From: a virus
Lineage: Duplodnaviria; Caudoviricetes
Strand: one strand, 5' to 3'
IMG/VR virus record: IMGVR_UViG_3300033434_000383
Span: 1-57,119 of that record
Length of the DNA stretch: 57,119 nt
Made by a program: the position numbers and the translations under genes. Every line of letters starts with the position of its first letter. The first letter of the stretch is position 1. Below the pieces are notes generated by a model. It had not been told where the DNA came from, did not search any database, and was given only the letters and a program-made list of their open reading frames with translations. Positions 11,216 to 36,361 of the stretch are shown here, piece by piece.

Positions 11216-11304
11216 TGAGACTTTATATAATGCCATCTACAGTTAATATAGCTGCCCCATTTTTTTCCTTCGGATGATTTGTTTTTCGAAATGGGGTGCG
11301 TAAT

Positions 11305-12474
11305 ATGGCAAAAAAAGTGACTAAAAGAGGCAACGGCGAAGGCACTATATCTCGGCGTAAAGATGGTCGCTGGGAAGGTAGGTTGACGATTGACTTTGAT
11401 CATCAAAACGGTAAATCTATTCGCAGAACGTTCTATGGAAAAACTCGTAAAGAAGTTCAAGAAAAAATGGAAAAAGTTAAAGCTCAGATTGTCACTGGCA
11501 CTTATGTTTCTGACCGAAAAATTACTATTGGCGAGTGGCTAGACACTTGGCTTATAACCTACTCAAAACCTAATGTTCGGATTGCAACATGGGAAAGTTA
11601 TGAAACTATGGTACGAGTTCATATTAAACCTTCAATAGGTAATATCCCTCTACAAGACCTTCGCCCTGAGCACTTGCAGAAATTATACAATAACAAGTTA
11701 AAAAGTGGGAGAATCAAGGGCGGTGGCTTGTCCCCTAAAACAGTTGGTTACATTCATACAGTTTTACATATGGCTTTAAAACAGGCTACAAGGGAACAAC
11801 TTGTCATTCGGAATGTAGCGGAACTGGTTAATAAGCCGAAGCAAAAAAAACATGAGATTACGCCTTTGACACTTGATGAACTGAAGGGTTTCTTAAATGC
11901 AGTTGTAGAACACCGTTTTTTTGTTCCCTTCCTGCTTGAATGTCACACAGGATTACGGCGTGGCGAACTTCTAGGGCTTCGTTGGCAAGACATTGACTTC
12001 AAACAAAATACGCTTACAGTAAAACAAGCTCTCATTCGAACACGGCAGGGTTTATTAATGTCAGAACCTAAAACACAAAAATCCAGGCGTACCATTCCAC
12101 TTTCGGATGAAGTAATGGCTACTTTAAAATCCCACAAGGCAAAACAGAGCCAAGTTAAGTTATTGGCTGGAAAAGCATATGAAAACGCCGACCTAGTCTT
12201 CTGCAATGAATTAGGCCATCCTATCGATCCTAGGAACTTTACTAAGCAGTTTGCACGTATTTTAACAAATGCCAATCTGCCAGTAGTGCGCTTTCATGAC
12301 ATGCGACATAGCCATGCTACCATGCTCCTCATGCTAAATGAACATCCCAAGGTTGTTCAAGAAAGGCTAGGACATAGTACCATTGCCATGACGTTAGACA
12401 CATATAGTCATATACTTCCTGGTATGCAGAAACAAGCAACTGAGAAAATTAGCCAAGCATTAAGTAACACATAA
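11305..12474 (+). CDS. int: Tyrosine integrase
   Basis: KRGNGEGTI N-terminus; TGLRRGELLGL, HDMRH, LGHS and DTYSH catalytic motifs. Confidence 0.95.
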   Translation: MAKKVTKRGNGEGTISRRKDGRWEGRLTIDFDHQNGKSIRRTFYGKTRKEVQEKMEKVKAQIVTGTYVSDRKITIGEWLDTWLITYSKPNVRIATWESYETMVRVHIKPSIGNIPLQDLRPEHLQKLYNNKLKSGRIKGGGLSPKTVGYIHTVLHMALKQATREQLVIRNVAELVNKPKQKKHEITPLTLDELKGFLNAVVEHRFFVPFLLECHTGLRRGELLGLRWQDIDFKQNTLTVKQALIRTRQGLLMSEPKTQKSRRTIPLSDEVMATLKSHKAKQSQVKLLAGKAYENADLVFCNELGHPIDPRNFTKQFARILTNANLPVVRFHDMRHSHATMLLMLNEHPKVVQERLGHSTIAMTLDTYSHILPGMQKQATEKISQALSNT

Positions 12475-12780: not shown

Positions 12781-13147
12781 GTCAATCATTGTTGCTAGAG
12801 CATGTCTATTGTAAGATCAGCTTTAGGAATTCTTTCCTATTATATTACCGTACACTTATTGCACGCCAATCGACAGCTTGACTGTTTTTAATTCATACTG
12901 AAAGCTTCTTTATATTGAGGTAAACATTCGGTCTTGTCACAATAAGAATATACGTCGTCTGGTTGAAGCAAAACCCTTCTTTATCTTGATTTAATCATAT
13001 CATCTTTCATCTTGAAAGTGGCATTTATATATGATAAAATTCTACAAAATATTAAACTAGCTTATGTTTTTTGTAATTATTTTGCAGGAAATTAATGTAA
13101 TTTGTCGTATGAAATATAAGGTATTTCAAAAATTAGGAGGAACCTAT

Positions 13148-13867
13148 TTGAACACATTATTTTCTATTTTATTACTACTCTCAATCTTATTTTTTATTAT
13201 TGGTTTATTCAAGCCATCCCTGGTAATTCGTTGGGGTAATCCTGACAAACGGGGACGAAAAAAAGCTTTGACCACTTATCTTATTTTAATTGTGGTTTTC
13301 TTTATCGCTGGAGCAACGACAGATTCATCGGAAAATTCCCAATCACAACAAACTTCCCAACCATCTCAAGGGCAACAACAAACTGAAAAAGCAGCTGTAA
13401 AAACTTATAAATCAGGTCAGTATAAAGTTGGACAGGACATTCCGGCAGGTGAATACGTTGCTATCGCCAACGGTCAGGCTTATATTGAAATAGCAAAAGA
13501 TTCTAAAGGCACAATGCAAAGTATTTTAGCAAACGATATTTTTATTAACAGAAGCATAATCAGCGTAAGTGATGGTCAATACCTAAAAGTTCAAGGATGC
13601 GAATTATATGCTTTTAAAGACGCTCCGAAAGTACAAGATAATAATGGCTTTCTTCCTGCCGGCATGTATAAAGTCGGTGTAGACCTCCCTGCAGGGGAAT
13701 ATAAAGTTACCTCCGAAGGCGGAGACAGTTATATAGAAACCAGTAATACAAGCCGTCATTCAATGGGTGATATAGTTTCAAATGATATCTTTCAAGGCGA
13801 TAAATACGTAACTGTATCAGATGGACAGTATGTAAAATTCTTCAGGGCAAAAATCAAAGTAAAATAG
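13148..13867 (+). CDS. Membrane-anchored surface protein (moron)
   Basis: TTG after AGGAGG; two N-terminal TM segments, S/Q linker, two G.YKVG.D.PAGEY repeat domains; GCAGGAAAT..GTCGTAT sigma-H-like promoter near 13084-13110; terminator at 13873-13893. Confidence 0.75.
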   Translation: MNTLFSILLLLSILFFIIGLFKPSLVIRWGNPDKRGRKKALTTYLILIVVFFIAGATTDSSENSQSQQTSQPSQGQQQTEKAAVKTYKSGQYKVGQDIPAGEYVAIANGQAYIEIAKDSKGTMQSILANDIFINRSIISVSDGQYLKVQGCELYAFKDAPKVQDNNGFLPAGMYKVGVDLPAGEYKVTSEGGDSYIETSNTSRHSMGDIVSNDIFQGDKYVTVSDGQYVKFFRAKIKVK

Positions 13868-13946
13868 CACCCAAGCCCCTCCACCGAGGGGCTAATTTAT
13901 TAATAAAAAGAACCGCCTATAAGGCAGCTAAGAGGAGAAATCATAT

Positions 13947-14170
13947 ATGACTAATGGCGTATTGAATTTTAGCAAGATGGCAGATAAGCTTAATGCCTCC
14001 ATGCAAAAGCAGCGGAATCAAAAACTGCCAAGGGGCTACATAGTCAAATCGTCGAATTAATTAACGGCTTTGAAAGAGACTTAGAACCGGATCTTGAGGC
14101 CGGGGCACAATTGGTGTCGTTTGGCCAAACCGTACAGTTTCACATAGTTGATGTAGGGTATTGGAAGCCA
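13947..14170 (+). pseudogene. DUF6173-like pseudogene
   Basis: AGGAG RBS and ATG; frameshift near 14030, then INGFERDLEPDLEAGAQLVSFGQTVQFHIVDVGYWKP; truncated. Confidence 0.55.
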
Positions 14171-14470
14171 ATCAAAGCCGTTTTTGCTGATTTCATTTCC
14201 AGTGTTGCACCCAAGTGAAACTATTTACCCTGTCAAACAGCCAATTTAGAAAGCCAAGGTATTTTAATCGTAATTTTGAAGTCGGAAAATTTCATATTGC
14301 CTCCTTTTGGCAGCGAGAAACCATCCATGACATAATGACTATTTATTCCAGATTAATAGCTGACTTACTGTTTCATTTTCGTAACATTTTACTTGTATAT
14401 GAATTGCTAACGCCAGTAATAAACTATATAATACTATATAATACTATCCCTAATACAGGGAGGCAACAAT

Positions 14471-15331
14471 ATGGAAACTTACACCACTAAAGATGAAATT
14501 AACCGTGAAAATCTTAAGGCTAACACGTTAGCATCAGTTATCCTTCGTCTTGATTTTACGCCAGTATTAGATATAAAAAGCTTTATAGAAATTGCGCAAA
14601 AAGTCTTGGTTCCTTTAGAGTTCAAATACAGCGAAGGAATTCTTAAAGACATTGAGGTAAAAATTAATGATCCAGGTGAATCAAGCAATGATGTTATTTT
14701 TAAAAAAAGTATAAATAGAGAAAATGTTTATAGATTTTTAAATGAAAAAACGCTTACGACTTTTAGTATTAACCGGTTTTTTCTTTCTTGTGAAATAAAT
14801 TGCACTGCTAAATACTTGTTCAGTCAGTACATCACAATATTTTGTAAACTTATAGATAACTTAAAGGGGAATTTTGAATATCTCAATGTAACACGTTTAG
14901 GATTACGAAAAATCAATATAGTATTATGTGAAAACATGGAAAATGTGTTTAATTGTTTTGAGAAACAATATTATGGTAGTTATTCCTCAAACATTAATTC
15001 TGAACTTTTAATGCTTGAAAATAAAGATCATTTTAAGTATCACAATATAGGCTTTAATTTAATTAAACAATTAAATACCGGAATTGCTCAAATTATCGAT
15101 GAAAAAACTAGTACTATTACAGAATCTAATGTCATTCAAGTAGCACTTGATATTGACGGATATTTAAAAGACAACGACGTTAGTGCCATAATCAATTGGG
15201 AATCAACTATTAAAGATATAAATAATCATATATTCACTATTTATAAATCGCACCTCTGTTTAGACTTTCTCAGCGATTTAATAAAAGGCACTTCCAACAA
15301 AGTAATAGGAGGTGTAACATTAAATGCTTAA
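14471..15331 (+). CDS. TIGR04255-like protein
   Basis: NTLASVILRLDF N-terminus, YRF..INRFFL, TRLGLRKIN and LDID motifs; GGGAGG RBS. Confidence 0.7.
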   Translation: METYTTKDEINRENLKANTLASVILRLDFTPVLDIKSFIEIAQKVLVPLEFKYSEGILKDIEVKINDPGESSNDVIFKKSINRENVYRFLNEKTLTTFSINRFFLSCEINCTAKYLFSQYITIFCKLIDNLKGNFEYLNVTRLGLRKINIVLCENMENVFNCFEKQYYGSYSSNINSELLMLENKDHFKYHNIGFNLIKQLNTGIAQIIDEKTSTITESNVIQVALDIDGYLKDNDVSAIINWESTIKDINNHIFTIYKSHLCLDFLSDLIKGTSNKVIGGVTLNA

Positions 15332-15500
15332 ATTTATAAATACTATTGATAAAAAAAATTCATGTGATGAAATTACTTTTAAAAATAATGATAGGCGAAT
15401 CATTTTTAAAAGTAATTATTCTACTACAAACAATAACATCAACGCGCAATCAAAACCGCCTTTGGAAGTGCGAGAAGTAACTACATGGAAAAACCGTTAA
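15324..15500 (+). CDS. Unannotated 58-aa protein coupled between the TIGR04255-like and MBL genes
   Basis: AGGAGGTG RBS; MLKFINTIDKKNSCDEITF...TTWKNR*; overlaps both neighbours. Confidence 0.6.
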   Translation: MLKFINTIDKKNSCDEITFKNNDRRIIFKSNYSTTNNNINAQSKPPLEVREVTTWKNR

Positions 15501-16444
15501 TTATTGATTTCAACAATATTTTTTTAGAAATATATTTAATAGGATATTCAGCCGAAGGAGAAAGCATTCTTTTTTTACTTCGTACTGAAGGTAGAGAAGA
15601 ACGAGTAGTTTTTTCTGGTGTTATTGATAGTTTTGAAGTTAAGAGTATTAATTATACAGATATATTACTTCATCATTTAGGTATTCAAAAAATCGATTTA
15701 TTGTGTTGGACTCATCCAGATAGAGATCATTCAATTGGAATTGATAGTCTATTGAATAAGTATGCCGACATAGATAAAACAAAAATTGTTTTACCCTGCT
15801 CACTATTCGAAAACCGATCAAAACTTACTGCTGATGCTTCTAGACGTTGTGATACAATTAAATCAGCAACATTAAGACGCAACGACGAATTAAAATATAA
15901 AATTATATATGCCCAACATGATTTAAGAGTATATGCTCGGCATTTCAGAAATCGCAAGGCTGAAGATTACTTGTTAGATATTACTGCTTTATCACCAGCT
16001 CCTTCGTTAATAATACCCCAAAATTATCATCATCAATTAGATACTAACTCATTTTCTATTGCATTATTAGTTTCATTTTCAGGAATAAATGCCTTATTCA
16101 CTAGTGATATAGAAAATAGAACACTAGCCTTTCTCTCAGATGAATTAGAAATGCCTCAAAAAATACACTATATTAAAATTCCCCATCATGGGTCATCGGG
16201 ATCAGATAAACTTATTGATATTATTGAAACACTCGATACTTCTGATATAGCTTGTACTACAGTTTTTTCAAAACACAAACTTCCAGAACAAACAATAATT
16301 AATAAATATAAATCAATTTCTACTCATGTTATTTCAACATCCGACTTTATTAACAACGAACCGGCCGGAATAATAGGTACACAATATGATATAAAAAATG
16401 CAACATATAGTTATAAAACATCTAATGATATAAATGACTTTTAA
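15485..16444 (+). CDS. Metallo-beta-lactamase-fold hydrolase (ComEC/Rec2-like)
   Basis: GESILF, IDS, THPDRDHSIG (HxDxDH), N..SI, FTSDIE and KIPHHGS motifs. Confidence 0.8.
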   Translation: MEKPLIIDFNNIFLEIYLIGYSAEGESILFLLRTEGREERVVFSGVIDSFEVKSINYTDILLHHLGIQKIDLLCWTHPDRDHSIGIDSLLNKYADIDKTKIVLPCSLFENRSKLTADASRRCDTIKSATLRRNDELKYKIIYAQHDLRVYARHFRNRKAEDYLLDITALSPAPSLIIPQNYHHQLDTNSFSIALLVSFSGINALFTSDIENRTLAFLSDELEMPQKIHYIKIPHHGSSGSDKLIDIIETLDTSDIACTTVFSKHKLPEQTIINKYKSISTHVISTSDFINNEPAGIIGTQYDIKNATYSYKTSNDINDF

Positions 16445-16466: not shown

Positions 16467-16498
16467 CTGATCCACCTCCAACCAAGGAGGTGGATCAG
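16467..16498. terminator. Terminator between the convergent moron and the late operon
   Basis: CTGATCCACCTCC / GGAGGTGGATCAG perfect 13-bp stem. Confidence 0.75.
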
Positions 16499-16579: not shown

Positions 16580-17089
16580 TCATGCTGCCAACGACTCTAA
16601 CTTTCGTAACAAATCAGCCGGTGTAACATTGTCTGCCGAGAAATCCGGGAATATGTCTAAACCTCCTGCTTGCAGGATATATGTTACCGCCTCGGAACAA
16701 TCAAAAGTTTTCTTCCCATCACCCCGCGCTGTTATGCCTAATATATCGTGTAGGCCACCATCAACACACGCCATCCAACCATAGGGCGTATTAAGCAAGC
16801 TTTTAGCTTCTGACTCTGCTACCTCATAATCAGGTACATCAACAGTAATAGTACGGGTTTTACGCTCCTTATAAATATCAATAGGCGATTTAACAAAACC
16901 ATCTGGTGTAGCTTCTAACAGTCCGTCCAGCATAAATATACCGACATGAGTAGGATCATCCCCAGCGCCTTCCGCTTTATCTATAACTCTGCCAATTATG
17001 TACCACATCCAAGCCGACAACTTTTTCCGCCAGGTATTAACTTTTGCGCGATTATCTTCCGGCCAACAAAATAAAACATTCACCTTCAT
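16580..17089 (-). CDS. Permuted papain-like NlpC/P60 amidase (YiiX/YaeF-like)
   Basis: THVGI (His), LEAT..G.V, L..PYGW, FDCSEAV (Cys), VTPADL. Confidence 0.75.
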   Translation of the reverse strand: MKVNVLFCWPEDNRAKVNTWRKKLSAWMWYIIGRVIDKAEGAGDDPTHVGIFMLDGLLEATPDGFVKSPIDIYKERKTRTITVDVPDYEVAESEAKSLLNTPYGWMACVDGGLHDILGITARGDGKKTFDCSEAVTYILQAGGLDIFPDFSADNVTPADLLRKLESLAA

Positions 17090-17156
17090 TTATACATACC
17101 TCCACATAAAGAAAAAAGACCCGGTCATAAGACCGAGCCCTTTCCGTTGTAATAAT

Positions 17157-17975
17157 CTAATCTAAATAGCTTTCACGATCATCATAGTCAACTTCCGTAG
17201 CTTCCGTTAGCTTGGTTTGTATATTAACAATATATTTATCGACAAAATGATCAGCTATGCTTGTTTCCCCTGCCGCAAGATTTGCTTCGAAGTCTGAGAC
17301 AGTAATTGCCTCGGCACTAGTTTCATCGAGATTACAGTAATAAGTATCTTCCAGTAATATTGTTTCTTCGCCAAAATGACGATACCGCCCATTTTTACTG
17401 CTAATAACAGTTAACGGCGGTAACAACGGCACTAGGTCTTTATTATTAACCACTCGCAATAATGGAATATCCCGGTATTCACATACCCCATCATAGTTAG
17501 TAATCATCGGCTGACCAAAGGTAATGCTCTGCCCGATAGTAAAACCATCTTTAAGTAAATATAGATGAAGAATAACCGTAATAGCACCACCTAAAGAATG
17601 GCCTGTTAAGTATGTCGTATAGCTGGTATCCAAGTCAGACAAAATCAGATCGTAGACTTCAATTGCCGATTCAAGAAAACCACTATGAATATAGATGCCT
17701 GTTTTTTCATCTAAAGTTTTCGCATACTTCGCATCTTCAACCCAATTTTCTATAGTATAACTTCCTCGAGTAACAATATATTGTGCTTTATTGGTATCAT
17801 CGAAAAGCAATATACATTGCCCATCGGTTTCAGTGGCTTCAACAACTTTTACCCGGTAAGAATCGCTATATTTTTCCTCAATTTCTGATTCTGTTTTGTT
17901 ATAAGCTGCGTCCGCCATTTTCATATATTTTAATATTTCATCTGCTGTTAAATTTGATGATAAATAAACACTCAT
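17157..17975 (-). CDS. Class 3 lipase (alpha/beta hydrolase)
   Basis: RGS..NW..D, IHSGF, TGHSLGGA nucleophile elbow, TFGQP, RVVNNKDLVP.LPP, YRHFG, DH..Y; ATG after CGGAGG. Confidence 0.9.
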   Translation of the reverse strand: MSVYLSSNLTADEILKYMKMADAAYNKTESEIEEKYSDSYRVKVVEATETDGQCILLFDDTNKAQYIVTRGSYTIENWVEDAKYAKTLDEKTGIYIHSGFLESAIEVYDLILSDLDTSYTTYLTGHSLGGAITVILHLYLLKDGFTIGQSITFGQPMITNYDGVCEYRDIPLLRVVNNKDLVPLLPPLTVISSKNGRYRHFGEETILLEDTYYCNLDETSAEAITVSDFEANLAAGETSIADHFVDKYIVNIQTKLTEATEVDYDDRESYLD

Positions 17976-18083
17976 AATTAATTCCTCCGATAAATTCTTA
18001 TTTGACATACATTGGCATTACCAAACACCTATTTTATTGATGCATAAAGAAAGGCTCGATCTTATTTGACCGAGCCTTTTGCA

Positions 18084-18989
18084 TTATGAAATTTTATCAC
18101 TAAGATCTTCCAAACCTTGTTTTAACCCGGCAACTAGTCCGGCCAGTGCCGCACTCATAGCAGCAATTTCAATAGAATTGCGCACTTTAACCCAAGGGCT
18201 ATCAGTATTTTTAATTTCATTTGTAAGTTCCGTAATCTTAGCAGCTATTGCTTCAGAAATTCCGGTTGTAGTACTGGTGGTGGTAGTAGTAAGACTCGTA
18301 ATAGCGGCCGTAACGGCGGCTTCCTTTGCAGCATCCTCAACAGTTGACACAGTAGATTCCTCCCCAGTTGTTGTTTCGACAGTTAAAGTAATAGTTCCGG
18401 TTACAGTAGATCCAGCGACCACGGTCACATCAACAGTATTCGATGAATAACCGTCCATCGTTGCCGTAAAAATATAAGTCCCGGCCTCTAGCCCCTCGAC
18501 GGTGGCCTGTCCGACAGAATCGGTTGTAGCATCGCACGAAACTGAGTTGACAGTATAAGTAAGCACTACCCCTTCCATTGCGGAGCCGGAACTATCTGTT
18601 ACAGTGATGGTTACAGCTCCAGTAGTAACGGTTTCAGCAGCGGCTTCTGTTTCGGCTGTTGTTGTAGCAGTTTCACTTGATACTTCGGTATCCTCTACAG
18701 TTTCAGCCGTAGATTCCGAATCTGTTTCGGTAGCTAAGTCGGCAACCACTTCTTCATCAACAAACCTTTGTAAATTAAATTTCATTTCCATTGCCAAACA
18801 CACTCCCTTAATCTTTTTTATAATCCACCGCATAATGCGGGCGATGGTCCTTAAACCATATGGTATTGCCGCCTCAGCTTCCGCTTTGGCATAACTAAAA
18901 ATCGCCACTTGTGCAGCCTCTAATTCAGACTGCACAAAGGGCGATTTTGCAAGATATTCAAGTATTTGTACGACTTTTTCAGTTGGCAT
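18084..18989 (-). CDS. Lysis-region protein with a CarboxypepD_reg-like (Ig/prealbumin) domain; probable internal start at 18791
   Basis: ITVTDSSG..G..TTDS.GQA...GL.AGTY..TAT..GY domain; acidic T/E-rich linkers; in-frame AAGGGAG RBS before MEMKFNLQRF. Confidence 0.65.
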   Translation of the reverse strand: MPTEKVVQILEYLAKSPFVQSELEAAQVAIFSYAKAEAEAAIPYGLRTIARIMRWIIKKIKGVCLAMEMKFNLQRFVDEEVVADLATETDSESTAETVEDTEVSSETATTTAETEAAAETVTTGAVTITVTDSSGSAMEGVVLTYTVNSVSCDATTDSVGQATVEGLEAGTYIFTATMDGYSSNTVDVTVVAGSTVTGTITLTVETTTGEESTVSTVEDAAKEAAVTAAITSLTTTTTSTTTGISEAIAAKITELTNEIKNTDSPWVKVRNSIEIAAMSAALAGLVAGLKQGLEDLSDKIS

Positions 18990-19533
18990 AATCAGTCACC
19001 CCCCTGGCAATTGCCCTGGCAAATTCATCTTGCCAATGCTGGTCTCCAAGCTTAGAAGCATTCTCTTGGTTAGATATAAACGCCAGTTCGGTTAATACTG
19101 CCGGTGCATCGGTATGTTTTGTCACATACAACGAATCAGTTTTTAAGCCTCGGTCAACTAAGTCACCTAATCCAATTAGTTGATTTTGGATGAACTCTGC
19201 TAGCTTCGCGCTTTGGGGACTACCAGCACAATAAATTGTCTCTGTTCCATTCGCCACCGAATTACTAAAAGAATTGCAGTGGATTGACACGAACACATCG
19301 GCACCAAAGTTATTTGAAATGTTGCACCTCGCTTGCAGCTCAGTAGTTGCATCATCGCCAGAATAACCAACATCTTTATCGGTTTCCCGCGTCATAATTA
19401 ACGTGCATCCGGCAGCTGTTAAATAATCTCTAACCTTTAAAGCTACAGTCAAAGCAATGTCTTTTTCCTGTAGGCCATTTCCGCAAGCTCCCGGATCGGA
19501 GCCACCATGACCAGGATCAATACAAACCTTCAT
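18979..19533 (-). CDS. Endolysin, N-acetylmuramoyl-L-alanine amidase (Amidase_3), no cell-wall-binding domain
   Basis: IDPGHGG, EKD, FVSIHCN and LTELAFISN motifs. Confidence 0.92.
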   Translation of the reverse strand: MKVCIDPGHGGSDPGACGNGLQEKDIALTVALKVRDYLTAAGCTLIMTRETDKDVGYSGDDATTELQARCNISNNFGADVFVSIHCNSFSNSVANGTETIYCAGSPQSAKLAEFIQNQLIGLGDLVDRGLKTDSLYVTKHTDAPAVLTELAFISNQENASKLGDQHWQDEFARAIARGVTDYAN

Positions 19534-19535
19534 AT

Positions 19536-19784
19536 TTATATCCCCTCCATTCCATCCAGTCTTTTGTGCGCAGATTTTGTGCTTTCTTCTACTACAACAA
19601 GGCGCTTATCAATATTTTTCTGGTCTTGCTCTAACCTAAACAGCATATTTTTCATTTCATTAATTGCTTCATGTAAAGCATTAATTGCTGTTTGCAATGG
19701 CTTAACTATCAGCAGTTTAACTACTCCCGCGGCGAATCCAATCACTGCAATGATCTGGACTGTACTATTTAAATTTACCTCCAC
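19536..19784 (-). CDS. Holin-like membrane protein
   Basis: Single N-terminal TM, coiled coil, VEESTKSAHKRLD motif; immediately before the endolysin. Confidence 0.6.
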   Translation of the reverse strand: MEVNLNSTVQIIAVIGFAAGVVKLLIVKPLQTAINALHEAINEMKNMLFRLEQDQKNIDKRLVVVEESTKSAHKRLDGMEGI

Positions 19785-19828
19785 ACCTTCCCCTCCCCAA
19801 ACATAAAAGTAACGGCTAAATTAGCCGC

Positions 19829-20359
19829 TTAATTCGTTGTAGCAGTTGTAGTATCTGAAGTTAGAGCAATTGTGCCGGTTACAGTAGAGCCAGTGACCGC
19901 AGTTACGCTTACGCTTGCACTCGTATAACCGCTTTCTGCAGCAGTAAATTCATATGTACCTGCTGTCAACCCAGAGAATGTAACTTGACCGCTTGAATCG
20001 GTCGTTCCGGAGCCTCCGCTATAGCTGACGGTGACGCCGGACAAAGCAGTGCCGGAGCTTTCAGTCACGGTAAGTTCAATTTTAGTATTACGTGTTACCT
20101 TGTTGACAAGCAACGTATCTAATTCTGCAATATAGGTATCGCCATCAGTCCACGGGATTGTCTGTGTTGTTTCATTATTTCCATCACTTAACACATGTCG
20201 TTTCCCCTGAACATAAATTCGACTTATATAACCATCAGGCAATCCTGAGTAAGTTGCCCCTAAATCCGCGGCAAAATTGGCGGGCGTATCACAATAGCTT
20301 TCTGATTCTCCTCTGACATATACCCATCCGTCAGGATGATGCTGAAACATCGTTGACAT
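19829..20359 (-). CDS. Tail-fibre-associated protein with C-terminal CarboxypepD_reg-like domain
   Basis: Follows the tail fibre; LTVTESSGTALSGVTV..TTDSSGQVTFSGLTAGTY. Confidence 0.6.
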   Translation of the reverse strand: MSTMFQHHPDGWVYVRGESESYCDTPANFAADLGATYSGLPDGYISRIYVQGKRHVLSDGNNETTQTIPWTDGDTYIAELDTLLVNKVTRNTKIELTVTESSGTALSGVTVSYSGGSGTTDSSGQVTFSGLTAGTYEFTAAESGYTSASVSVTAVTGSTVTGTIALTSDTTTATTN

Positions 20360-20371
20360 CTAGTGCCCCCC

Positions 20372-21622
20372 TTAGTATTTGATAATGTAATTCAAAACGA
20401 TATACGGCGGCATATTGTTATGTGCTTCGCCGCCACCCGTATAATTAGTTCCATTTGATGATTCAGTGGAGGCACTGTTTCCGTCGCTTTCCATTGTTAC
20501 ATATCCCGCTGTGCCACTAGTACCGCCAGTAATAGTATGGTGATGGCTTGGCATCTCATCTGTCGTCAAGGTATGCTCAGTTTCGCCGCCGGTTGCCGCA
20601 AGCGTGGAATAAGTATCTCCTTTACCTAAAACAAATTTATCCTGCAAGTCCGGCAATGCAAATGTCGTACTTCCATCGCCCGTTCCATAAGTTGTCCCTA
20701 TAACATCGTACAAATCCGCATATGTTGTTCGAGACACCGTTGATCCATCACACAATAGATAACCATCAGGAGCTGAACTACCAGCATAAGATACAATTGC
20801 CCCGGAAGGATTTACGCCCAATGCAGTATTTGCTTGATTAATATCTGGTGCAGTATACCAATTGTCTTGGCCGGTAATAGATTTTAGCATGTACGCCAGT
20901 TTTGACAACATGTTATTCAGGTTATCTGCATCAGCAGTAGCAGCCAATGTATCGTCAATAGTTCGGGTACCTATTTTCGCATCAGTTACAGCGCTATCGT
21001 TAATTTTAGCCGTGCTTACGGCGCTGTCATTAATCTTAGCAGTAGTAACAGCACTATCATTAATTTTATCGGTTGTAACAGCACTGTCGGCAATCTTAGC
21101 CGTAGTGACCGAACTGTCAGGGTGATCAATTGGCGATGCTTCAACGTGTGTATTAAATGTTTTCAATGAGACTAAAACAGAATCTTCATCAATTGTCGCG
21201 GTTACGCTGCTCGCACTGCCAACCGCCGTTATTAAATCAATAACGGATTCAACAACAACAGAACCGCCACCAGCCGGTAGATAATCGCATTCGTCGCCGG
21301 AATTAGCATAGGCGTACATAATATCACCGTCATCTGGATCGGTAGCGAATAAACCGATCTCTCGGAGAAAAAATCCGGTCGTTACACTTGAATTTGTAAG
21401 TGTGCCGCGAACTCTATATGTACCATCGCCCATAGATGTAACAGATTCAATTTCTACTTCTAGCTGTGAATCAACCAGCGCAGTGAAAGAAGAAAGAGTT
21501 GTACTTGATGAAACAGTTCCATCGCCAACCTTTATTTTTGAAAAAGACATTGTTGTGCCAGCTTGAACTTTTGTTTGCAAATTAGCGCCTTGAGTTGTTA
21601 CAGTTAATCCTGTAAAAGCCAA
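20372..21622 (-). CDS. Tail fibre with baseplate-anchor N-terminus and tail-collar C-terminus
   Basis: DUF3751-like GFFLREIGLFATDPD..MYAY; collar motif PSGAI..APDGYLLCDG..SRTTYADLY..TTFALPDL. Confidence 0.9.
   Translation of the reverse strand: MAFTGLTVTTQGANLQTKVQAGTTMSFSKIKVGDGTVSSSTTLSSFTALVDSQLEVEIESVTSMGDGTYRVRGTLTNSSVTTGFFLREIGLFATDPDDGDIMYAYANSGDECDYLPAGGGSVVVESVIDLITAVGSASSVTATIDEDSVLVSLKTFNTHVEASPIDHPDSSVTTAKIADSAVTTDKINDSAVTTAKINDSAVSTAKINDSAVTDAKIGTRTIDDTLAATADADNLNNMLSKLAYMLKSITGQDNWYTAPDINQANTALGVNPSGAIVSYAGSSAPDGYLLCDGSTVSRTTYADLYDVIGTTYGTGDGSTTFALPDLQDKFVLGKGDTYSTLAATGGETEHTLTTDEMPSHHHTITGGTSGTAGYVTMESDGNSASTESSNGTNYTGGGEAHNNMPPYIVLNYIIKY
20969..21118 (-). repeat. Five 30-bp in-frame repeats (DS.VTT.KI.) in the fibre shaft
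   Basis: DSSVTTAKIA DSAVTTDKIN DSAVTTAKIN DSAVSTAKIN DSAVTDAKIG. Confidence 0.85.
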
Positions 21623-21623
21623 A

Positions 21624-22274
21624 TTAAGATACCTCCTTTAAGGTCAGCACTTTTCCGCTTACCAGCGCTGTGCCAAAATATGTTGTGCCGGTTACGGCCC
21701 CCATTTCAAAAGCCTTGGGGAAAAGTGTTAGCATTTTGCCATCCACCAACGCAGTGCCAAAATACATATTGCCTGTCCAAGTCCTATTAATAATAATACC
21801 TTCCAACCACGACCGGATATTTTTTACTGAATTTATCATCTCGGCCAGTTCCGCTAGTACCGTTGTACTTGAAACGACCGTTTCAGTTGTAACCTTGAAA
21901 TAGTACGGCTCACCGTCATATTCAAACCATTCTTTAAGCGATGCATTAAGCCCCGCGTCTTCCACGATTTGCTTCACTGCATAAGCCGTACCTTTTTGAT
22001 ATTTATATATATACCCGTTTTTGACCAAGGCCCGGCGGACGTCCAGGGATAAGGTCTGATCGTAGAAATCAACTTGTATCTCCCCCGCTAGGTTGTCCAC
22101 CACATCTGAGCAGGCATTATCTACATCAGCAATGGTCAGGCAATTCTTTATCGAACTGACTAATGCCCGATACTCGGTGTCTACAGCTTGGCTGGCTGCT
22201 ATAATATCTGGATCGCTGCGGAGGTTCTCCGGCAAGAGTTCTAACAGCGTAACATCGTAAACTGTTTTACTCAT
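21624..22274 (-). CDS. Baseplate/tail protein, P2 gpI-like
   Basis: KGTAYAV, EWFEYDGEPYYF, KNIRSWLE; synteny after gpJ. Confidence 0.85.
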   Translation of the reverse strand: MSKTVYDVTLLELLPENLRSDPDIIAASQAVDTEYRALVSSIKNCLTIADVDNACSDVVDNLAGEIQVDFYDQTLSLDVRRALVKNGYIYKYQKGTAYAVKQIVEDAGLNASLKEWFEYDGEPYYFKVTTETVVSSTTVLAELAEMINSVKNIRSWLEGIIINRTWTGNMYFGTALVDGKMLTLFPKAFEMGAVTGTTYFGTALVSGKVLTLKEVS

Positions 22275-23421
22275 CCTCCAGACCTCCATAGGTCAAGTTG
22301 ACTGTACCCTCGAGCGCCACCTGAGTATCACTAACCTCGGTATATTCTGGCGAAGTAATAACCACCCGTTTCGCGCCCGCGCCGATAATATCGGAAATAA
22401 GCTGGGACGGATTAATATCACGGCCAATAATAGATTTTTGCCAAATCACATAATCATCAACCGCCGAAGTTACTGCCGTTTGAATTGTGCTGGCCGAAGT
22501 TTTGTCTGACGATTTTATATAATAGGTAGCTTCAATATCATAAGACACTGTTTCCGGCGCACTTACTGTTACATTATCAGTCAGTGGCCGCCTTGAATCA
22601 TCCGACAAGTATTCTTCGACTTCGGAAATCAAAGTGGAATCTGGCAATTCCCCATCAGTCAAAATAAAACAGACGTCAACTTCTCCGGGACTAGCCGAAG
22701 TAACGCTAACGTCAATAATTGATGAGTTACATTCTTTTGTAAAATACTCATACGCTCCTACCGGGCCAGCCACACTGAAGGATTCGGGCTTTTGGAATAT
22801 CCGCCCCTTTAATGTATCATCGTCCTCTTCATCGGTCCCGCCCTGACTAGTGGAAGTATTGGTCGTACTTGATACATATTGAATAGGATCTACCAAAGTC
22901 GTAATCTGACCGGCTAAATAGCCATTACCATCGGTGCCAGTCTCAGTGCATTCCACCGTTACATCTACATAGGTATCACCGGCGACCACTTCAGCATATT
23001 CAGTCGTAGCAAAATAAATTGATCCGCCAGCGCTTACCTGTGTCCCAGACGCAATCGCCACCGCCGACTCTTGAGCCGCCGACAAGGTAAAACGTTGAGT
23101 AGTCGTAGCAGCGGTGGCTTCAGCCCTGTTCACCCCCACCCTGGCGCCAAGGTTTTCGAGATAATCCCCACTCGAATATCTAAGCAGGTTATATTTTGCC
23201 GCCTGATCAATAAGTTGATAAGCCGCATAAATCCGTAATGCCTGCGAATAAATCCAGATCCGGACCGGATCACCGTCCGCCAAGGTTTTGCTTTCGCCAG
23301 TTGACTCTTCATAAGCAGACTCATACTCTGTTACCATGGCCTCGAGGAGTGTATCCACGTCTTTCTCAACAAAATCTATATCCGGTAAATTTTCTAAGTC
23401 CTCAATCATCGACAAGGTCAA
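22267..23421 (-). CDS. Baseplate J/gp47 protein
   Basis: GGTDEEDDDTL..RI, FSVAGPVGAYEY and RPLTDNV.V motifs. Confidence 0.9.
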   Translation of the reverse strand: MTLSMIEDLENLPDIDFVEKDVDTLLEAMVTEYESAYEESTGESKTLADGDPVRIWIYSQALRIYAAYQLIDQAAKYNLLRYSSGDYLENLGARVGVNRAEATAATTTQRFTLSAAQESAVAIASGTQVSAGGSIYFATTEYAEVVAGDTYVDVTVECTETGTDGNGYLAGQITTLVDPIQYVSSTTNTSTSQGGTDEEDDDTLKGRIFQKPESFSVAGPVGAYEYFTKECNSSIIDVSVTSASPGEVDVCFILTDGELPDSTLISEVEEYLSDDSRRPLTDNVTVSAPETVSYDIEATYYIKSSDKTSASTIQTAVTSAVDDYVIWQKSIIGRDINPSQLISDIIGAGAKRVVITSPEYTEVSDTQVALEGTVNLTYGGLEDE

Positions 23422-23710
23422 TCACCACCTTGGGATACATACATCCGTTTAATTCATCATACTCAAAAGTTACACTATTAATAGAAGCGCGCGGTTCATA
23501 CTTGTTTATTTTAGTGATATATTCGACTGTCATTTTAGCCTTGGAGCGTTCCAGCGGCAAATCGAGAAAACTCATATCAACGCCAAACTCACGATCAAAA
23601 GGAACAGTGCCAGCCGGTGTGGTCAATATCATATGAACATTTTGCATAATTTCATCGCTACCGGTGGCCGACCAGTTAATCACAATACTTGAAGCGCTTA
23701 TACTGCTCAT
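23402..23710 (-). CDS. Baseplate wedge gpW/gp25-like protein
   Basis: QNV..IL.T..GTVPFDREFG..YEPRA. Confidence 0.85.
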   Translation of the reverse strand: MSSISASSIVINWSATGSDEIMQNVHMILTTPAGTVPFDREFGVDMSFLDLPLERSKAKMTVEYITKINKYEPRASINSVTFEYDELNGCMYPKVVIDLVDD

Positions 23711-24111
23711 GAAGTTTCCTCCACATATTCCTCTAACGTAATATCTACCTTGCCTTTATACACTTCGCCACCGTTTAAAATGGTGTCCCAGGTTTCACTC
23801 ACCGACTTAACCACCCATTTGTTTAGGCCGACAAGCGTACCGCCAATGACTAAATACTCGGCTTCGCCAGATTCGGCTTTATCCTGCCAAACCTCCATTT
23901 CTTCGCGCGGTTTTACACCAAGAAATGCATTTAAGGATATGGTAAAGGAAATTGTAGATAAACCAGGACCAATATATTCCGTGACAGGTTTCTCGCCGAT
24001 GATTTCATGAGTTGCATACCGGGAAGCTGTTTCCCGCTTAAAGCCGGTAAAGTTATATACTTGCGAATCCGAAATCTCAAAAATAATGTCATCACCGAAA
24101 TAGCCGATCAT
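23707..24111 (-). CDS. P2 gpU-like tail protein
   Basis: IG.FG..IF, H..IG.KP..EYIGP, LEEY. Confidence 0.8.
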   Translation of the reverse strand: MIGYFGDDIIFEISDSQVYNFTGFKRETASRYATHEIIGEKPVTEYIGPGLSTISFTISLNAFLGVKPREEMEVWQDKAESGEAEYLVIGGTLVGLNKWVVKSVSETWDTILNGGEVYKGKVDITLEEYVEETS

Positions 24112-24112
24112 A

Positions 24113-24586
24113 TTAAACCACCGCTCCCGTATTGCTGCCGCCTGATTCTACACCGCTATGGGTATGGCTTAAAAAACTCTTGCCACTAATCGTCGCGTCA
24201 CCAGATACCGTCAATGTGCCATTAATTGTGACATTACCGTCAAATACAATATTCTCAGCGCTAATAGTAAAAGTTTTAGAACTTTTATCATATTTCATAT
24301 AGGCATCCTGAAGGAATTCTTTATAATAGATATTCTCTCCCGACTCGCCCGGTAAAGAACTGTCATAATAGTAACGGCCTAAGCAGAAACCTTTCGCCAA
24401 GCCGTTGCCTAAAAATATACACAGAACTAATTCTCCGACATTCGGCATTTCATACTCAAAGCCTAACATTGGAAGGTCATCGGTCACGATACTATCCTGG
24501 TCCTTAAAACAAACTCGAACACAGCCGGTATCATAAGCGACGGAACTCACCGTCCCCACTCGCAAAAGATTCTTTATATTTTCCAC
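24113..24586 (-). CDS. Baseplate spike (gpV-like)
   Basis: RVGTVSSV, MP.VGELV.C, C-terminal HTHSGV..G..TG iron-tip motif. Confidence 0.85.
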   Translation of the reverse strand: MENIKNLLRVGTVSSVAYDTGCVRVCFKDQDSIVTDDLPMLGFEYEMPNVGELVLCIFLGNGLAKGFCLGRYYYDSSLPGESGENIYYKEFLQDAYMKYDKSSKTFTISAENIVFDGNVTINGTLTVSGDATISGKSFLSHTHSGVESGGSNTGAVV

Positions 24587-25596
24587 TAATAACCCTCCAA
24601 GACTTTGTGCATTTCAATGCTGATTGTAAAGCCGCTGCCGGTTTTCCGGGTAACCTTATCCAAATAATACTTACCATCAAATATTCCAAAGCCGAAAGTT
24701 GTAACTGTATGACTGGAGAATAGCTTTAAATTTCCCGGCAAATCCATACTCATGGTATATTCCTTTTTATTAAGTTCCCGAAGTTTTGCCTGTGCCTTTC
24801 GCTCGGCTTCAGCTAAACTATTGGCCTTTTCGTTCATCTGATATACCTTGCTGCCGGTTTTATCAGGAGCGGTAAAGGTATAAGAAAACGTTTCCCCTGT
24901 CGTGGGGTTAGTGTATTTAATCAAGCAGCCGTCATAGCCAGTATCAGTGAAAGTGGTTTTTGCCTGCCAGCTAATAACGTTTTCCTCAGTAATGGTCATA
25001 ACCGAGTCCTTAGCTTCATATTCGGTTTCGCTAAAAATAACAATCTTTTGATTATATAACTTCATGGCCAAACTATTGTTTTTGCATAGATCAAACAAAA
25101 ACGAGACGTCCGGCGTCTCGCTCTGCTCGATATAATCAACAACAGGATTTGTTGAGGAATCAAAATACAGCCCTACGCCAGCAGTATCAGCAATATACTG
25201 GGCAATACTTTTCACCGTGGCAGACTGCCAAGTCTTACTTTTGTTCGTAGTCATGAAATTAGTATCGCTTGGCGTAGATACTGCACCTAAAGTTAATTTG
25301 CGCGGCCGCCCTGAATAACTTGGCTCATCAACAATAAATGCCCCACAGGATAATGATTGACTGTCGCCTGACTTATCCCAGTTAGTTGTTACTATAGTCG
25401 GTTTTACAATATCGCCCTTCGTTGGTGCCCAGCCATCTATCCATTTTTTATTATTATCCTTAAGCTCGATAGAAACATCGTTAGCCTCTCCAGAAGCATT
25501 ATCGGTATAGCTAAAACTAATCAGATCCGCCTCGATATATTTTGTTATGTTTGTACCTTCATAAAGTAATTCAATATTAGCGCGTCTTGTTTCCAT
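24586..25596 (-). CDS. Baseplate hub / late control protein D
   Basis: SFSYTDN..GEA.D...L.D...W; Q.E.D.SFL..LC; synteny. Confidence 0.85.
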   Translation of the reverse strand: METRRANIELLYEGTNITKYIEADLISFSYTDNASGEANDVSIELKDNNKKWIDGWAPTKGDIVKPTIVTTNWDKSGDSQSLSCGAFIVDEPSYSGRPRKLTLGAVSTPSDTNFMTTNKSKTWQSATVKSIAQYIADTAGVGLYFDSSTNPVVDYIEQSETPDVSFLFDLCKNNSLAMKLYNQKIVIFSETEYEAKDSVMTITEENVISWQAKTTFTDTGYDGCLIKYTNPTTGETFSYTFTAPDKTGSKVYQMNEKANSLAEAERKAQAKLRELNKKEYTMSMDLPGNLKLFSSHTVTTFGFGIFDGKYYLDKVTRKTGSGFTISIEMHKVLEGY

Positions 25597-25599
25597 GAT

Positions 25600-25806
25600 T
25601 TAAGCCCAGGGCGGCGTACTGGACGCCGTCGTGTCCTCTTCTTCAATATCCGGCAAAGTCAATGCAACACCGCTCGAAAAAATTACGGTTGATATATAAT
25701 CTGGATTAGCCTTCATCAATTCCTCCGTATATTTAACCGCACCAAGTTCATTAAAGGCGATACTATCAAAAGTATCGCCTGATTTTGTTTTATAGGTTGT
25801 AGACAT
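25600..25806 (-). CDS. Tail protein X (LysM-like)
   Basis: YKTKSGDTFDSIA..ANP..PPW. Confidence 0.85.
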   Translation of the reverse strand: MSTTYKTKSGDTFDSIAFNELGAVKYTEELMKANPDYISTVIFSSGVALTLPDIEEEDTTASSTPPWA

Positions 25807-25817
25807 TTTTGCACCTC

Positions 25818-27803
25818 TTAGGCAAAACTTAACCGCTGCCGCCTTTCTATAAGCGCATTAAAGCGGCTCTCAAAATCGTGATAAGATTGATCACTGGCAG
25901 TTTTTAATGTATTTTGATCAGCATTGCCTTGGATAATGTACTGTGGTGAGTAGCTTACCGATATAGTGCCTGTCAAACCACTGCCGGACAATCCATTCAA
26001 TAAGCTTTGCGTCCTACTATTCGGTGTAACCTGGCTACCTCGCGGCAACCTCAAAAGCTCCGGGCCGCGTTCGCCAACCAGCGCAACCCCACCAGGATGA
26101 TAGTCAGTGCCATCAGCGTAGGCTGGAAGACTGCTAGCTTGCATACCAGACTGTAAACTACTGCTAGCACCGCTAATTAAGTTTTGAACAAAACTACCAG
26201 CACTGCTGATTGCATTAGATACAGCATTAGGTATTTGCATAACCCAATTAACCACGGATTGATAAACACTGGAACCCCAAGCGTCGATAGTTGCTAGAAA
26301 TGAACTCAGTGCCCCTTCAGCGTTAGCTGGTAAATCAATGAAAAACTGAATTGTACTGTTCACGCCAGATCCAATTGTTGTAACCATTGCTGTGGCCGTT
26401 GCAGAAACAAATGCAGTAACTCGCTCCGGCAGAGTCGCAACATAACCAATCATATACCCAATGCCATAGGCCACACACTGCACCGCTCCACTAATACCAC
26501 TACTGATATAGCTCGGCAAGTTAGTTATAAACTGTGTTACGGTGGTATAAACTTTGCTAAACCAAGCCGTCACACCGCCCCAGACCTCGCTGGCTTTTTG
26601 CGAGATGGTATCCCAATTACGATATAATAGGACTCCGGCAACAACTACTGCCACAATCCCGGCAACAATCCAAGTTAGAGGATTCAAAAGCATAGCAGAA
26701 TTAAGCGCGACCTGAGCCACCTCGGTTAGTGCATATCCCTCGCGCAGCAGTGCCAGTGCTGTCGTTGCTGTACCCCACGCAGTGGTTAGAGCAGTAATTA
26801 TCATCCCGCCTTTTTGGGCTGCAACCATCGCCAAAGTTGCGGCCTCATTAGCAGCAATAGCCCCGGTCAATGTTATGACTATCGGCTCGATCAACGGCCA
26901 ATTATCTAGCACCCAAGATACTCCATTTACAGCGGTACTCATAACATTCCCCATACTTTGACTTAAAGCTTCTAACTGCCCACCGCTTGTGAGATTCACC
27001 AGCATATCAGACAATTTTGATGCGTTCTGCGTCATTACATCAAAAAAACTACCCTGCTTGATAGAACCGTCAAGTGCAACCCCGGCCATTTGAGCCAGCG
27101 TAGTTTGCCAAGTACCAGAAATAGTGCTCATAACGCCTTTCCATGTCTTGGACTGCATCTCAGTACCGCCTTTAAACCGTTCATTCATCAGCGAGAACAT
27201 GGCTTTATTGAAGTTTTCCTGATCGGTTATTTGGCCTTTGTTATTGACCACTATCCCCAAGCGAAGTTTCTCCGCCTGGGCAATAATCATATCCTTTGTT
27301 ATGCCAAATTCCTTCATTCTTTCAAGTTCGCCTGTTTGTGCATCAGCCACCGCTTCCACTGCCTGCATTAGATCTTTGCCCATGACGGACGCCATATCAC
27401 CGACCGCCGGAAGAACGTCCTGCGCGGCAATACCATAACTTTGAAGCCGAACCGTAGCCTCAACTACACCCTTCGTATCAAATGGAGTTGAATTAGCATA
27501 ATTAGCCGCCCAAACCATTGTCTGAGCGGCTAATTCCTGATCCTTCATAACCACATTCAGTGTATTCCTATAACTCTGCATATCAGCGGCATTATCAATC
27601 ATTCCTTTACCCAGGGCGGCAATGCCTGCAGTTACACCAATCCCGGCAATCGCGCCTGAAAAACCACTGAATGCTCGTTCACCAACACTGGCCTGAGTTT
27701 GAGCTTCGGCCATATACCGTTGCACTTGCCCAAAGCTTTTTCCCATTGATGCCTGAATCTGTGCCCCGAGTAAAAACATAGTTTCATAAGTTTTACTTGC
27801 CAC
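25818..27803 (-). CDS. Tape measure protein
   Basis: A..TPF..V...VRL.SYG tape domain; A/G-rich; YA.GT..GG.ALVGERGPEL C-terminus. Confidence 0.9.
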   Translation of the reverse strand: MASKTYETMFLLGAQIQASMGKSFGQVQRYMAEAQTQASVGERAFSGFSGAIAGIGVTAGIAALGKGMIDNAADMQSYRNTLNVVMKDQELAAQTMVWAANYANSTPFDTKGVVEATVRLQSYGIAAQDVLPAVGDMASVMGKDLMQAVEAVADAQTGELERMKEFGITKDMIIAQAEKLRLGIVVNNKGQITDQENFNKAMFSLMNERFKGGTEMQSKTWKGVMSTISGTWQTTLAQMAGVALDGSIKQGSFFDVMTQNASKLSDMLVNLTSGGQLEALSQSMGNVMSTAVNGVSWVLDNWPLIEPIVITLTGAIAANEAATLAMVAAQKGGMIITALTTAWGTATTALALLREGYALTEVAQVALNSAMLLNPLTWIVAGIVAVVVAGVLLYRNWDTISQKASEVWGGVTAWFSKVYTTVTQFITNLPSYISSGISGAVQCVAYGIGYMIGYVATLPERVTAFVSATATAMVTTIGSGVNSTIQFFIDLPANAEGALSSFLATIDAWGSSVYQSVVNWVMQIPNAVSNAISSAGSFVQNLISGASSSLQSGMQASSLPAYADGTDYHPGGVALVGERGPELLRLPRGSQVTPNSRTQSLLNGLSGSGLTGTISVSYSPQYIIQGNADQNTLKTASDQSYHDFESRFNALIERRQRLSFA

Positions 27804-28232: not shown

Positions 28233-28243
28233 TCGTCGTCCTC

Positions 28244-30228: not shown

Positions 30229-30244
30229 ATTAAATCACTCCTCT

Positions 30245-31284: not shown

Positions 31285-31289
31285 TTACA

Positions 31290-31604: not shown

Positions 31605-31606
31605 GA

Positions 31607-31888: not shown

Positions 31889-31896
31889 GTAATCAC

Positions 31897-32937: not shown

Positions 32938-32954
32938 TTATTTTATAGCCTCCT

Positions 32955-33335: not shown

Positions 33336-33341
33336 TCTTAA

Positions 33342-36096: not shown

Positions 36097-36105
36097 ATCA
36101 CCACC

Positions 36106-36345: not shown

Positions 36346-36361
36346 GTTCTCACCTCACTGG

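Follow-up and report, generated by a model that had tools for sequence, protein, structure and literature searches.

The window analyzed here, all 57,119 nucleotides of the IMG/VR provirus record IMGVR_UViG_3300033434_000383 (Caudoviricetes), contains the lysis end, of Firmicute type, of a temperate phage of a diderm Negativicute. Five consecutive open reading frames (ORFs) run along its minus strand from 19784 to 16580 in the order p82 (a holin candidate), an amidase endolysin, p301 (an immunoglobulin (Ig)-domain protein), a class-3 lipase and p169 (a YaeF/YiiX-like enzyme). With modest confidence, we favor a reading in which a peptidoglycan hydrolase, p301 and p169 make up the core of a lysis cassette, with p169 as an accessory lysis enzyme and the lipase gene as inserted cargo. 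The first-pass annotation of this DNA had located all five co-oriented genes correctly but had proposed the lipase and p169 for the leading part, as a possible LysB-like third step of lysis. Our analysis instead makes the endolysin-p301-p169 module the more interesting object.

Synteny of the hydrolase, p301 and p169 genes

Profile searches matched p169 in 30 of 401 genomes of the class, with six matches in a single metagenome-assembled genome (MAG), G001, that also carries DNA identical to the window (see below). We inspected the p169 neighborhoods at 24 genome loci and 18 IMG/VR loci. At 16 of the 24 genome loci, p169 has a peptidoglycan hydrolase gene on its own strand, either directly upstream or adjacent, and this hydrolase is an Amidase_3 (L176, L210, L219, L221, L225, L226), an Amidase_2 (L175, L177, L209, L223), a second kind of Amidase_2 (L208, L212, L217, L220, L224) or a Glucosaminidase (L218). 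No fewer than 17 of the 24 loci also have, on one side or the other of p169, a p301-like gene or at minimum the tail motif from its C-terminus. The order of the two is swapped at L219, L221, L223, L225 and L226, and in at least three loci (L215, L216, L217) p169 is fused through a Thr/Ser-rich linker to a p301-type tail. Start and stop codons overlap or abut those of the upstream lysis gene at L212, L218, L223, L224 and L225, the last of which has a Phage_holin_4_1 gene in front.

Among the IMG/VR loci, the hydrolase, p301-like and p169 genes are consecutive in 15 of 18, while one of the remaining loci is cut and two have recombinase genes inserted between the amidase gene and a broken p169. 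A YiiX-like enzyme beside the endolysin is thus a regular feature of related prophages. The linkage persists when the endolysin family or the gene order changes and when genes are fused, which argues for p169 and p301 as cooperating members of the lysis cassette. The first-pass annotation had recorded the Ig-domain protein but had overlooked that it is a constant, and sometimes fused, partner of the YiiX-like enzyme.

Some sibling cassettes hold additional genes. A Peptidase_C1 papain-like protease is encoded between the amidase and the p301-like gene at L175:14288-15031 and also at L208, L223, L250, L251 and L261, as a third enzyme in those lysis cassettes. At L263:1941-5841, the amidase gene is followed by a gene for a 197-aa protein with an N-terminal transmembrane (TM) segment, the start of which overlaps the amidase stop; this locus further contains a Fic/Doc-like ORF (recognized by eye) and two large serine recombinase genes beside a broken p169.

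The fold of p169 and the tail of p301

The p169 sequence had no Pfam match even at E 10, and none of the 41 proteins in its family carries a Pfam domain. Its AlphaFold2 model (pLDDT 81.3, pTM 0.77), in contrast, aligned in VIA-align with E. coli YiiX (2if6_B; Z 12.7, rmsd 2.6 over 130 residues) and with the B. cereus permuted cysteine peptidase BcPPNE (3kw0_A; Z 11.4), both scores standing well above the next unrelated rows, at 14-18% sequence identity to these structures. Foldseek agreed, returning 3kw0 at E 8.6e-4, while a PDB sequence search with the p169 profile gave nothing meaningful. Weaker fold matches were TseH (Z 8.5), the MARTX RID domain (Z 8.2) and PLAAT4 (Z 7.3).

The p169 alignment shows no variation at His48, Tyr103 or the Cys131-Ser-Glu motif and almost none at Glu59, and far more remote family members retain these residues. 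When 1.84 billion representatives were searched with the family profile, 244 relatives were recovered, and 11 of 32 distant ones matched PF05708 (Peptidase_C92; best E 1.3e-8). His48 precedes Cys131, as in the permuted papain fold, and the conserved order His, Glu, Tyr, Cys corresponds to His49/Glu64/Tyr115 or 127/Cys128 or 154 of PMC3142127, by order rather than by three-dimensional superposition. Based on this model, p169 is a divergent YaeF/YiiX-type permuted papain-fold cysteine hydrolase as far as fold and superfamily go. The earlier label "YiiX/YaeF-like His..Cys amidase" therefore stands at the level of fold and superfamily but not as direct Pfam membership. Like the enzymes in 2if6 and 3kw0, p169 combines this fold and residue order with a similar size and no signal peptide; it differs from them in lacking a direct Pfam match, in its low identity, in being encoded in phage lysis cassettes and in sometimes being fused to a phage-specific tail. 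For YaeF/YiiX-type enzymes, Xu et al. (2011) describe a Cys-His-Glu-Tyr catalytic set, hydrophobic S1 pockets, a fatty acid bound in YiiX and frequent fusion to membrane-targeting modules, and they propose a "likely amidase for a lipid-amino acid bond" with membrane-associated functions (PMC3142127).

The fold leaves the substrate undecided, since of its other matches TseH is a reported peptidoglycan-degrading effector, while PLAATs are reported to act on phospholipids. The tail-anchored PLAAT/LRAT-type phospholipases and the type VI secretion effector TseH share the permuted catalytic core, although their similarity to p169 is distant. In PLAATs, the catalytic domain comes first and a hydrophobic helix forms the C-terminus, and the fused p169-tail proteins have this same order.

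p169 could accordingly be a second peptidoglycan hydrolase, an endopeptidase or amidase adapted to the polyamine-modified wall of Negativicutes that would finish its degradation, in which case p301 would be an unrelated neighbor or a regulator and the outer membrane would rupture passively or through another factor. The TseH similarity points in this direction, as does the position of p169 beside four types of endolysin; moreover, the endolysin in the window is a bare catalytic domain, and the additional Peptidase_C1 in other cassettes makes multi-enzyme cassettes usual. We nevertheless consider this reading unlikely because p169 is closest in fold to YiiX and BcPPNE, which bind lipids and are not wall hydrolases, while canonical NlpC/P60 wall hydrolases reached Z scores of only 2-3 against the p169 model. 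In addition, p169 has neither a wall-binding domain nor a signal peptide, its fusions place it on a hydrophobic tail, and it is almost without counterpart in cultured phages, where a single-sequence tblastn search returned one weak match in a Ralstonia phage.

The partner protein p301 matches the Pfam CarboxypepD_reg/Ig-like domain (E 2.2e-10), and an Atlas search returned the same known Ig-like domain. Its layout is a helical head, a disordered acidic/Thr-rich linker, the Ig-like domain and a C-terminal two-helix tail, which the AlphaFold2 model resolves into helices at residues 3-78, disorder at 82-118, a beta-sandwich at 123-202 (pLDDT over 90) and helices at 217-261 and 265-300. The head contains a strongly amphipathic cationic helix with a hydrophobic moment of 0.81, and the p301 ORF overlaps the amidase stop by 11 nt. 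We found 29 homologues, mostly covered at full length. Using a Kyte-Doolittle hydropathy (KD) of 1.6 over 19 residues as the TM threshold, 23 of 28 family members have a tail at or above it, while the N-terminal amphipathic helix has a KD of 1.0 or less in most members. Together with the p169-tail fusions, the hydrophobicity of these tails suggests that the p301 tail brings the amphipathic head, or the enzyme, to a membrane. A single-sequence tblastn search of cultured phages with p301 gave no match, and a complex prediction for p301 with p169 (score 0.00, mark 0.32) yielded no verdict and was used neither way.

Two other assignments for p301 were rejected. It has no signal peptide and no conserved lipobox, and the Cys that follows the amphipathic helix is missing in most relatives, which speaks against a lipoprotein. 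The C-terminal hydrophobic helix of most family members recalls a unimolecular spanin, but there is no N-terminal lipoprotein signal.

At about residues 67-80, p301 contains an internal M-K-F-N-L-Q-R-F motif that is present in only some relatives and that resembles the N-terminal extension which Prp cleaves from ribosomal protein L27 and some phage capsid proteins. A p301-like protein at L208:6470-7084 begins with this motif and lacks the helical head. A Prp peptidase is encoded in the host MAG, and cleavage at the motif would release the amphipathic head of p301. Between the tail-fiber gene and p82, a 176-aa protein (19829-20359, minus) also has a CarboxypepD_reg domain, with 52% identity to p301 over 50 residues, which suggests domain exchange between a fiber-associated protein and the lysis-region p301.

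The lipase gene, its hairpins and the rest of the cassette

The class-3 lipase was identified correctly in the first-pass annotation: it matches Lipase_3 (PF01764) at 73.8 bits against a cut-off of 22 (E 1.7e-20) and has the GHSLGG motif. Its ORF spans 17157-18008, and translation probably begins at the ATG at 17975, 8 nt behind a GGAGG; this gives a length of 272 aa like that of its homologues. G136-H-S138-L-G140, D191 and H254 are invariant in 24 aligned sequences, and by the usual residue order of Lipase_3 enzymes Ser138, Asp191 and His254 form the predicted catalytic triad. The protein has no signal peptide (KD 0.23 over the N-terminal 40 residues).

In contrast with p301, the lipase is not a regular neighbor of p169. 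It lies beside p169 at one of 24 genome loci (L001, 97% identical and also in G001) and at none of the 18 IMG/VR loci. Full-length orthologues are present in only 2 of the 401 class genomes, G001 and the Massilibacillus MAG G002; the other 225 genomes positive for Lipase_3 encode different, longer proteins that score 50-80 bits. A search of species-representative genomes found three close loci (L001, L002, L003) from two Bacillota MAGs. The L002 copy, which belongs to the Massilibacillus MAG, is a solitary gene in chromosomal surroundings, with a P-type ATPase on one side and unrelated genes on the other, while L003 is a third G001 copy beside tRNA genes and integrase fragments. In cultured phages, only two Cylindrospermopsis phages matched, at 37.5% identity over one third of the length. 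Outside the Firmicutes, the nearest relatives (L004-L080) are encoded on the chromosomes of many diderm phyla, among them Proteobacteria and Nitrospirota. These more distant homologues, with about 40% identity, often have a lipoprotein-like N-terminus, and the Negativicute clade has lost any such signal.

The lipase gene is also set apart by its composition and surroundings. Its G+C content is 0.359, whereas p169, p301 and the amidase have 0.435-0.443, and a copy of the same hairpin lies on each side of it. Copy 1 has a 9-bp stem and a 6-nt loop followed by TTTCTTTAT, within an 83-nt spacer that folds at -27.4 kcal/mol, although it was absent from the list of the terminator consensus scan; copy 2 was terminator-like in that scan, with 15 pairs. 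The same hairpin, followed by TTTTCTTTAT and GGAGG, lies between the p301-like and p169-like genes at L209, L210, L176 and L177. The element is therefore normally single between p301 and p169 and is doubled in the window, with one copy on each side of the lipase. At L001 (650-2122), homology to the window breaks in the hairpin loop, where a 1.4-kb insert carries a glutamate racemase gene on the opposite strand. In a promoter scan, neither the lipase nor p169 had a promoter-like site upstream. Of the features expected of a moron, the lipase shows the deviant G+C, the hairpin terminator and the insertion footprint but not a promoter-like site of its own. Given its sparse distribution, low G+C, doubled hairpin, stand-alone copies and the racemase insert at L001, we regard the lipase as mobile cargo, and the hairpin that separates p301-like from p169-like genes seems to serve as a hotspot for insertions. 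The idea that all five genes form the end of one late operon is questionable because terminator-like hairpins lie on both sides of the lipase gene; their co-orientation stands.

These data bear directly on the LysB-like model of the first-pass annotation, in which the lipase and the YiiX-like amidase would be made late, escape through the action of holin and endolysin, and either break down lipids of the outer membrane or sever this membrane from the peptidoglycan. The model fits a diderm host with no spanin found, the co-oriented genes with no promoter-like site before either enzyme, an intact predicted triad, and a lipase without a signal peptide whose distant diderm homologues have lipoprotein-like N-termini. 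A precedent may be phage WO, which has been proposed to use a patatin phospholipase in its lytic cassette (PMC9203015). However, of the loci with the rest of the cassette, 23 of 24 in genomes and 18 of 18 in viral records have no lipase gene, the lipase is rare in the class and solitary in one chromosome, its G+C deviates between duplicated hairpins, and the same hotspot holds a racemase gene at L001. These data thus do not support the lipase as a member of the p169 system, and it is not regularly present beside the endolysin as a LysB-like role would have it; we judge the model as a whole quite unlikely. Mycobacteriophage cassettes regularly include the esterase LysB, which detaches the outer layer of mycolic acids. 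It resembles the window lipase in idea, as a lipolytic enzyme without a signal peptide that is encoded beside the endolysin and directed at an outer lipid layer, but the window enzyme is a Lipase_3 and is not conserved among related cassettes, so LysB serves as an analogy only. The lipase may still be made late and be released at lysis, although a helper role there has a low probability.

That p301, the lipase and p169 are lysogenic-conversion or defense cargo, expressed in the lysogen and unrelated to lysis, is very improbable: hairpins with T-runs precede the lipase and p169, the neighboring plus-strand metallo-beta-lactamase (MBL)-fold protein has PADLOC matches, and the interval from lysin to prophage end is the classical moron site in Firmicute prophages, but start/stop overlaps couple p169 to upstream lysis genes in several loci, p169 and p301 swap order and fuse, the pair stays beside hydrolases of different families, no promoter-like site was found, and PADLOC matched none of p82, p301, the lipase and p169. 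For the lipase alone, we leave this reading open; a role as a defense effector was dropped for lack of a PADLOC match.

The first two genes of the cassette (Table 1) are less unusual. The p82 protein has a hydrophobic segment at residues 9-27 (KD 2.45), but it matched no holin family in Pfam or PHROGs and hit only PHROGs 1863 and 1009, both of unknown function. Homologues with 56-74% identity lie directly upstream of the endolysin at L209, L210 and L219, and cassettes without p82 have a 61-aa two-helix protein or a Phage_holin_4_1 in its position. An Atlas search returned unnamed viral clusters for p82, with a "releasin" family at 0.90 that we treat as a lead only. What remains of the annotated "holin-like gene" is thus a small one-TM protein before the endolysin, whereas a match to a holin family was not obtained. 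The endolysin gene, directly after p82, matches phrog_435 (endolysin; E 8.9e-58) and Pfam Amidase_3 (E 9.4e-57, 192 bits). Because this domain spans residues 3-180 of 184, there is no space for a wall-binding domain, in agreement with the first-pass annotation. When the cassette DNA was compared with cultured phage records, only a 73-bp lysin stretch of a Bacillus phage matched.

Table 1. Features of the lysis cassette, with positions in the window
Feature	Position	Strand	Details
p82, holin candidate by position	19536..19784	minus	82 aa; one N-terminal TM segment, then coiled-coil-like C-terminus
Endolysin, N-acetylmuramoyl-L-alanine amidase, catalytic domain only	18979..19533	minus	184 aa; Amidase_3
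p301, Ig-domain protein	18084..18989	minus	301 aa; CarboxypepD_reg/Ig-like domain
Hairpin copy 1 and T-run, p301/lipase spacer	18044..18080	minus	
Class-3 lipase	17157..17975	minus	272 aa from the ATG preceded by a ribosome-binding site; ORF open back to 18008
Hairpin copy 2 and T-run	17112..17145	minus	directly upstream of the p169 ribosome-binding site
p169, divergent YaeF/YiiX-type (Peptidase_C92-like) hydrolase	16580..17089	minus	169 aa
Strong hairpin that ends the transcription unit, located between p169 and the converging plus-strand genes	16467..16498		13-bp stem, 8 G-C pairs

Upstream of the cassette are the tail-fiber gene and further tail-module genes, and downstream an AT-rich set of plus-strand genes (13064-16444) converges on it. 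This set includes the 319-aa MBL-fold protein (15485-16444, plus; PADLOC RTasMBL (DRT) 2.8e-13, LmuA 2.6e-12) and is preceded by an integrase at 11296-12474, which suggests a separate small island. Taking in the record edges (1-546 and 55866-57119), the record has two tyrosine integrases and, at its left edge, a Terminase_2 small subunit, and therefore holds more than one mobile element.

The host envelope and phage exit

The host assignment rests on DNA identity, since positions 18000-37999 of the window are 100% identical to a 30.4-kb contig (C119) of G001 that ends inside the lipase gene. G001 falls in one class-level group with G002, the MAG named Massilibacillus, whose taxonomy is Negativicutes, Sporomusaceae. 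Both MAGs encode LpxC and Omp85, and G001 has 37 SLH-domain ORFs of about 410-490 aa, an OmpM-like size. One of its contigs, the 258-kb C68, holds an Omp85 gene together with a sibling lysis cassette, so the link to a diderm host does not come from binning alone. The suspicion that the host is a diderm Firmicute was thus borne out. In Negativicutes, the outer membrane is tethered by the SLH domains of OmpM, used instead of Lpp, which bind peptidoglycan whose D-Glu is modified with a polyamine, cadaverine or putrescine (PMC10628300).

Consistent with the first-pass annotation, no spanin pair of lipoprotein and TM protein was found in the cassette or elsewhere in the phage. At 16.5-20.4 kb, the only lipobox ORF is a 57-aa frame inside the amidase gene, which we judged to be due to chance. 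On the minus strand from 16 to 53 kb, there is a single lipobox ORF, in the early region at 46831-47346. Ten small or membrane ORFs elsewhere in the phage had no PHROG of the lysis category. The Rz profile PF03245, a single profile for a diverse group of proteins, matched one of the 401 class genomes and was absent from G001, while the E. coli control was positive. The early-region ORF encodes a 171-aa predicted lipoprotein with a Gly-Cys lipobox that matches phrog_24725 of unknown function and may be of the superinfection-exclusion type.

Gene identities, the p169 fold, the host type, the synteny, the fusions and the insertion footprint are observed directly. In the model that we favor, for which we infer the timing of expression, membrane localization, substrates and any effect on the outer membrane, the core would comprise the p82 holin candidate, a peptidoglycan hydrolase (here an Amidase_3), p301 and p169. 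p301 joins a cationic, amphipathic head to a hydrophobic helical tail at the C-terminus through a linker that may or may not contain an Ig domain. Following the holin and endolysin step, p169 would act as an accessory enzyme at a membrane surface, brought there by covalent fusion to a p301-type tail in some phages and here acting together with p301, and would cleave an acyl or amide bond in a lipid-linked or peptidoglycan-linked component of the envelope. The pair would occupy the place held by spanins in phages of Proteobacteria, and the lipase gene would be a later insertion at the hairpin hotspot rather than a standard part of the apparatus.

Several observations weigh against this model. 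Eight of the 24 genome loci lack a firm hydrolase neighbor: L222 has a weak YkuD/Glucosaminidase match and L214 an amidase remnant only; contig ends or the lipase interrupt L001, L213 and L216; and L211, L215 and L227 have no hydrolase. The locus counts are not independent since at least two IMG/VR loci duplicate G001 loci, and the comparison of the module with monoderm Firmicutes consists of the single-sequence tblastn search against cultured phages. The tail of the window p301 has a KD of 1.47, under the TM threshold. Furthermore, a tail-anchored protein without a signal peptide would face the cytoplasm and could reach the outer membrane only after a prior membrane lesion. TseH shares the fold of p169, which may therefore be a second wall hydrolase, and the hairpin and T-run before p169 in sibling cassettes mean that it could be separately regulated. 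As for the lipase, without a promoter-like site it would, if transcribed, probably be read through from the late genes, which fits a role at lysis as well as cargo, and its lack of a signal peptide, a feature shared with LysB, is as expected of an enzyme released at lysis.

Compared to known systems, the cassette resembles those of lambda (S/R/Rz/Rz1) and T1 (gp11) in that one or two additional genes close the cassette behind those for a small membrane protein and a muralytic enzyme, in a phage whose host has an outer membrane. A two-component spanin consists of a type II membrane protein and a small outer-membrane lipoprotein, while the unimolecular spanin gp11 combines a lipoprotein signal with a C-terminal TM segment. 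The C-terminal hydrophobic anchor of gp11 has a counterpart in most p301 family members, but the cassette studied here has neither a lipoprotein signal nor an Rz/Rz1-type pair, and the component that it adds is an enzyme. The cassette proposed for phage WO contains a phospholipase, a holin-like one-TM/coiled-coil protein and a C-terminal-TM protein suggested to be spanin-like, but no endolysin, and the Wolbachia host has no detectable peptidoglycan (PMC9203015). Its members parallel the lipase, p82 and p301, respectively, although the WO enzyme is a patatin rather than a Lipase_3 and is conserved, unlike the window lipase, and the WO cassette is itself a proposal.

Rands et al. described a Firmicute position of the lysis cassette in Negativicute prophages (bioRxiv 10.1101/606087), and that position is kept here. 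The main text of their preprint contains neither "spanin" nor "lipase", and literature searches on spanins of Negativicute phages and on class 3 lipases in bacteriophage lysis found only unrelated work. How phages leave diderm Firmicutes is thus not addressed in the literature found by searching. Since the OmpM tether replaces Lpp and Rz-type spanins are almost absent, a conserved enzyme-plus-anchor pair behind the endolysin is a concrete and testable candidate for the missing step, and since this tether is bound to polyaminated D-Glu, an amide-cleaving enzyme in these cassettes is worth testing. A bolder and rather improbable extension is that Negativicute phages breach the outer membrane enzymatically, with a membrane-anchored p301/p169 YiiX-type amidase system releasing or breaching the OmpM-tethered membrane. 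This might occur by cutting the polyamine amide on D-Glu or by deacylating a lipid-linked component, with the cationic p301 head breaking membranes like a disruptin and optional cargo such as the lipase adding lipid degradation. The lipase is of less general interest and marks a hairpin that seems to collect cargo genes, while the p301/p169 module would give the YaeF/YiiX family a biological setting.

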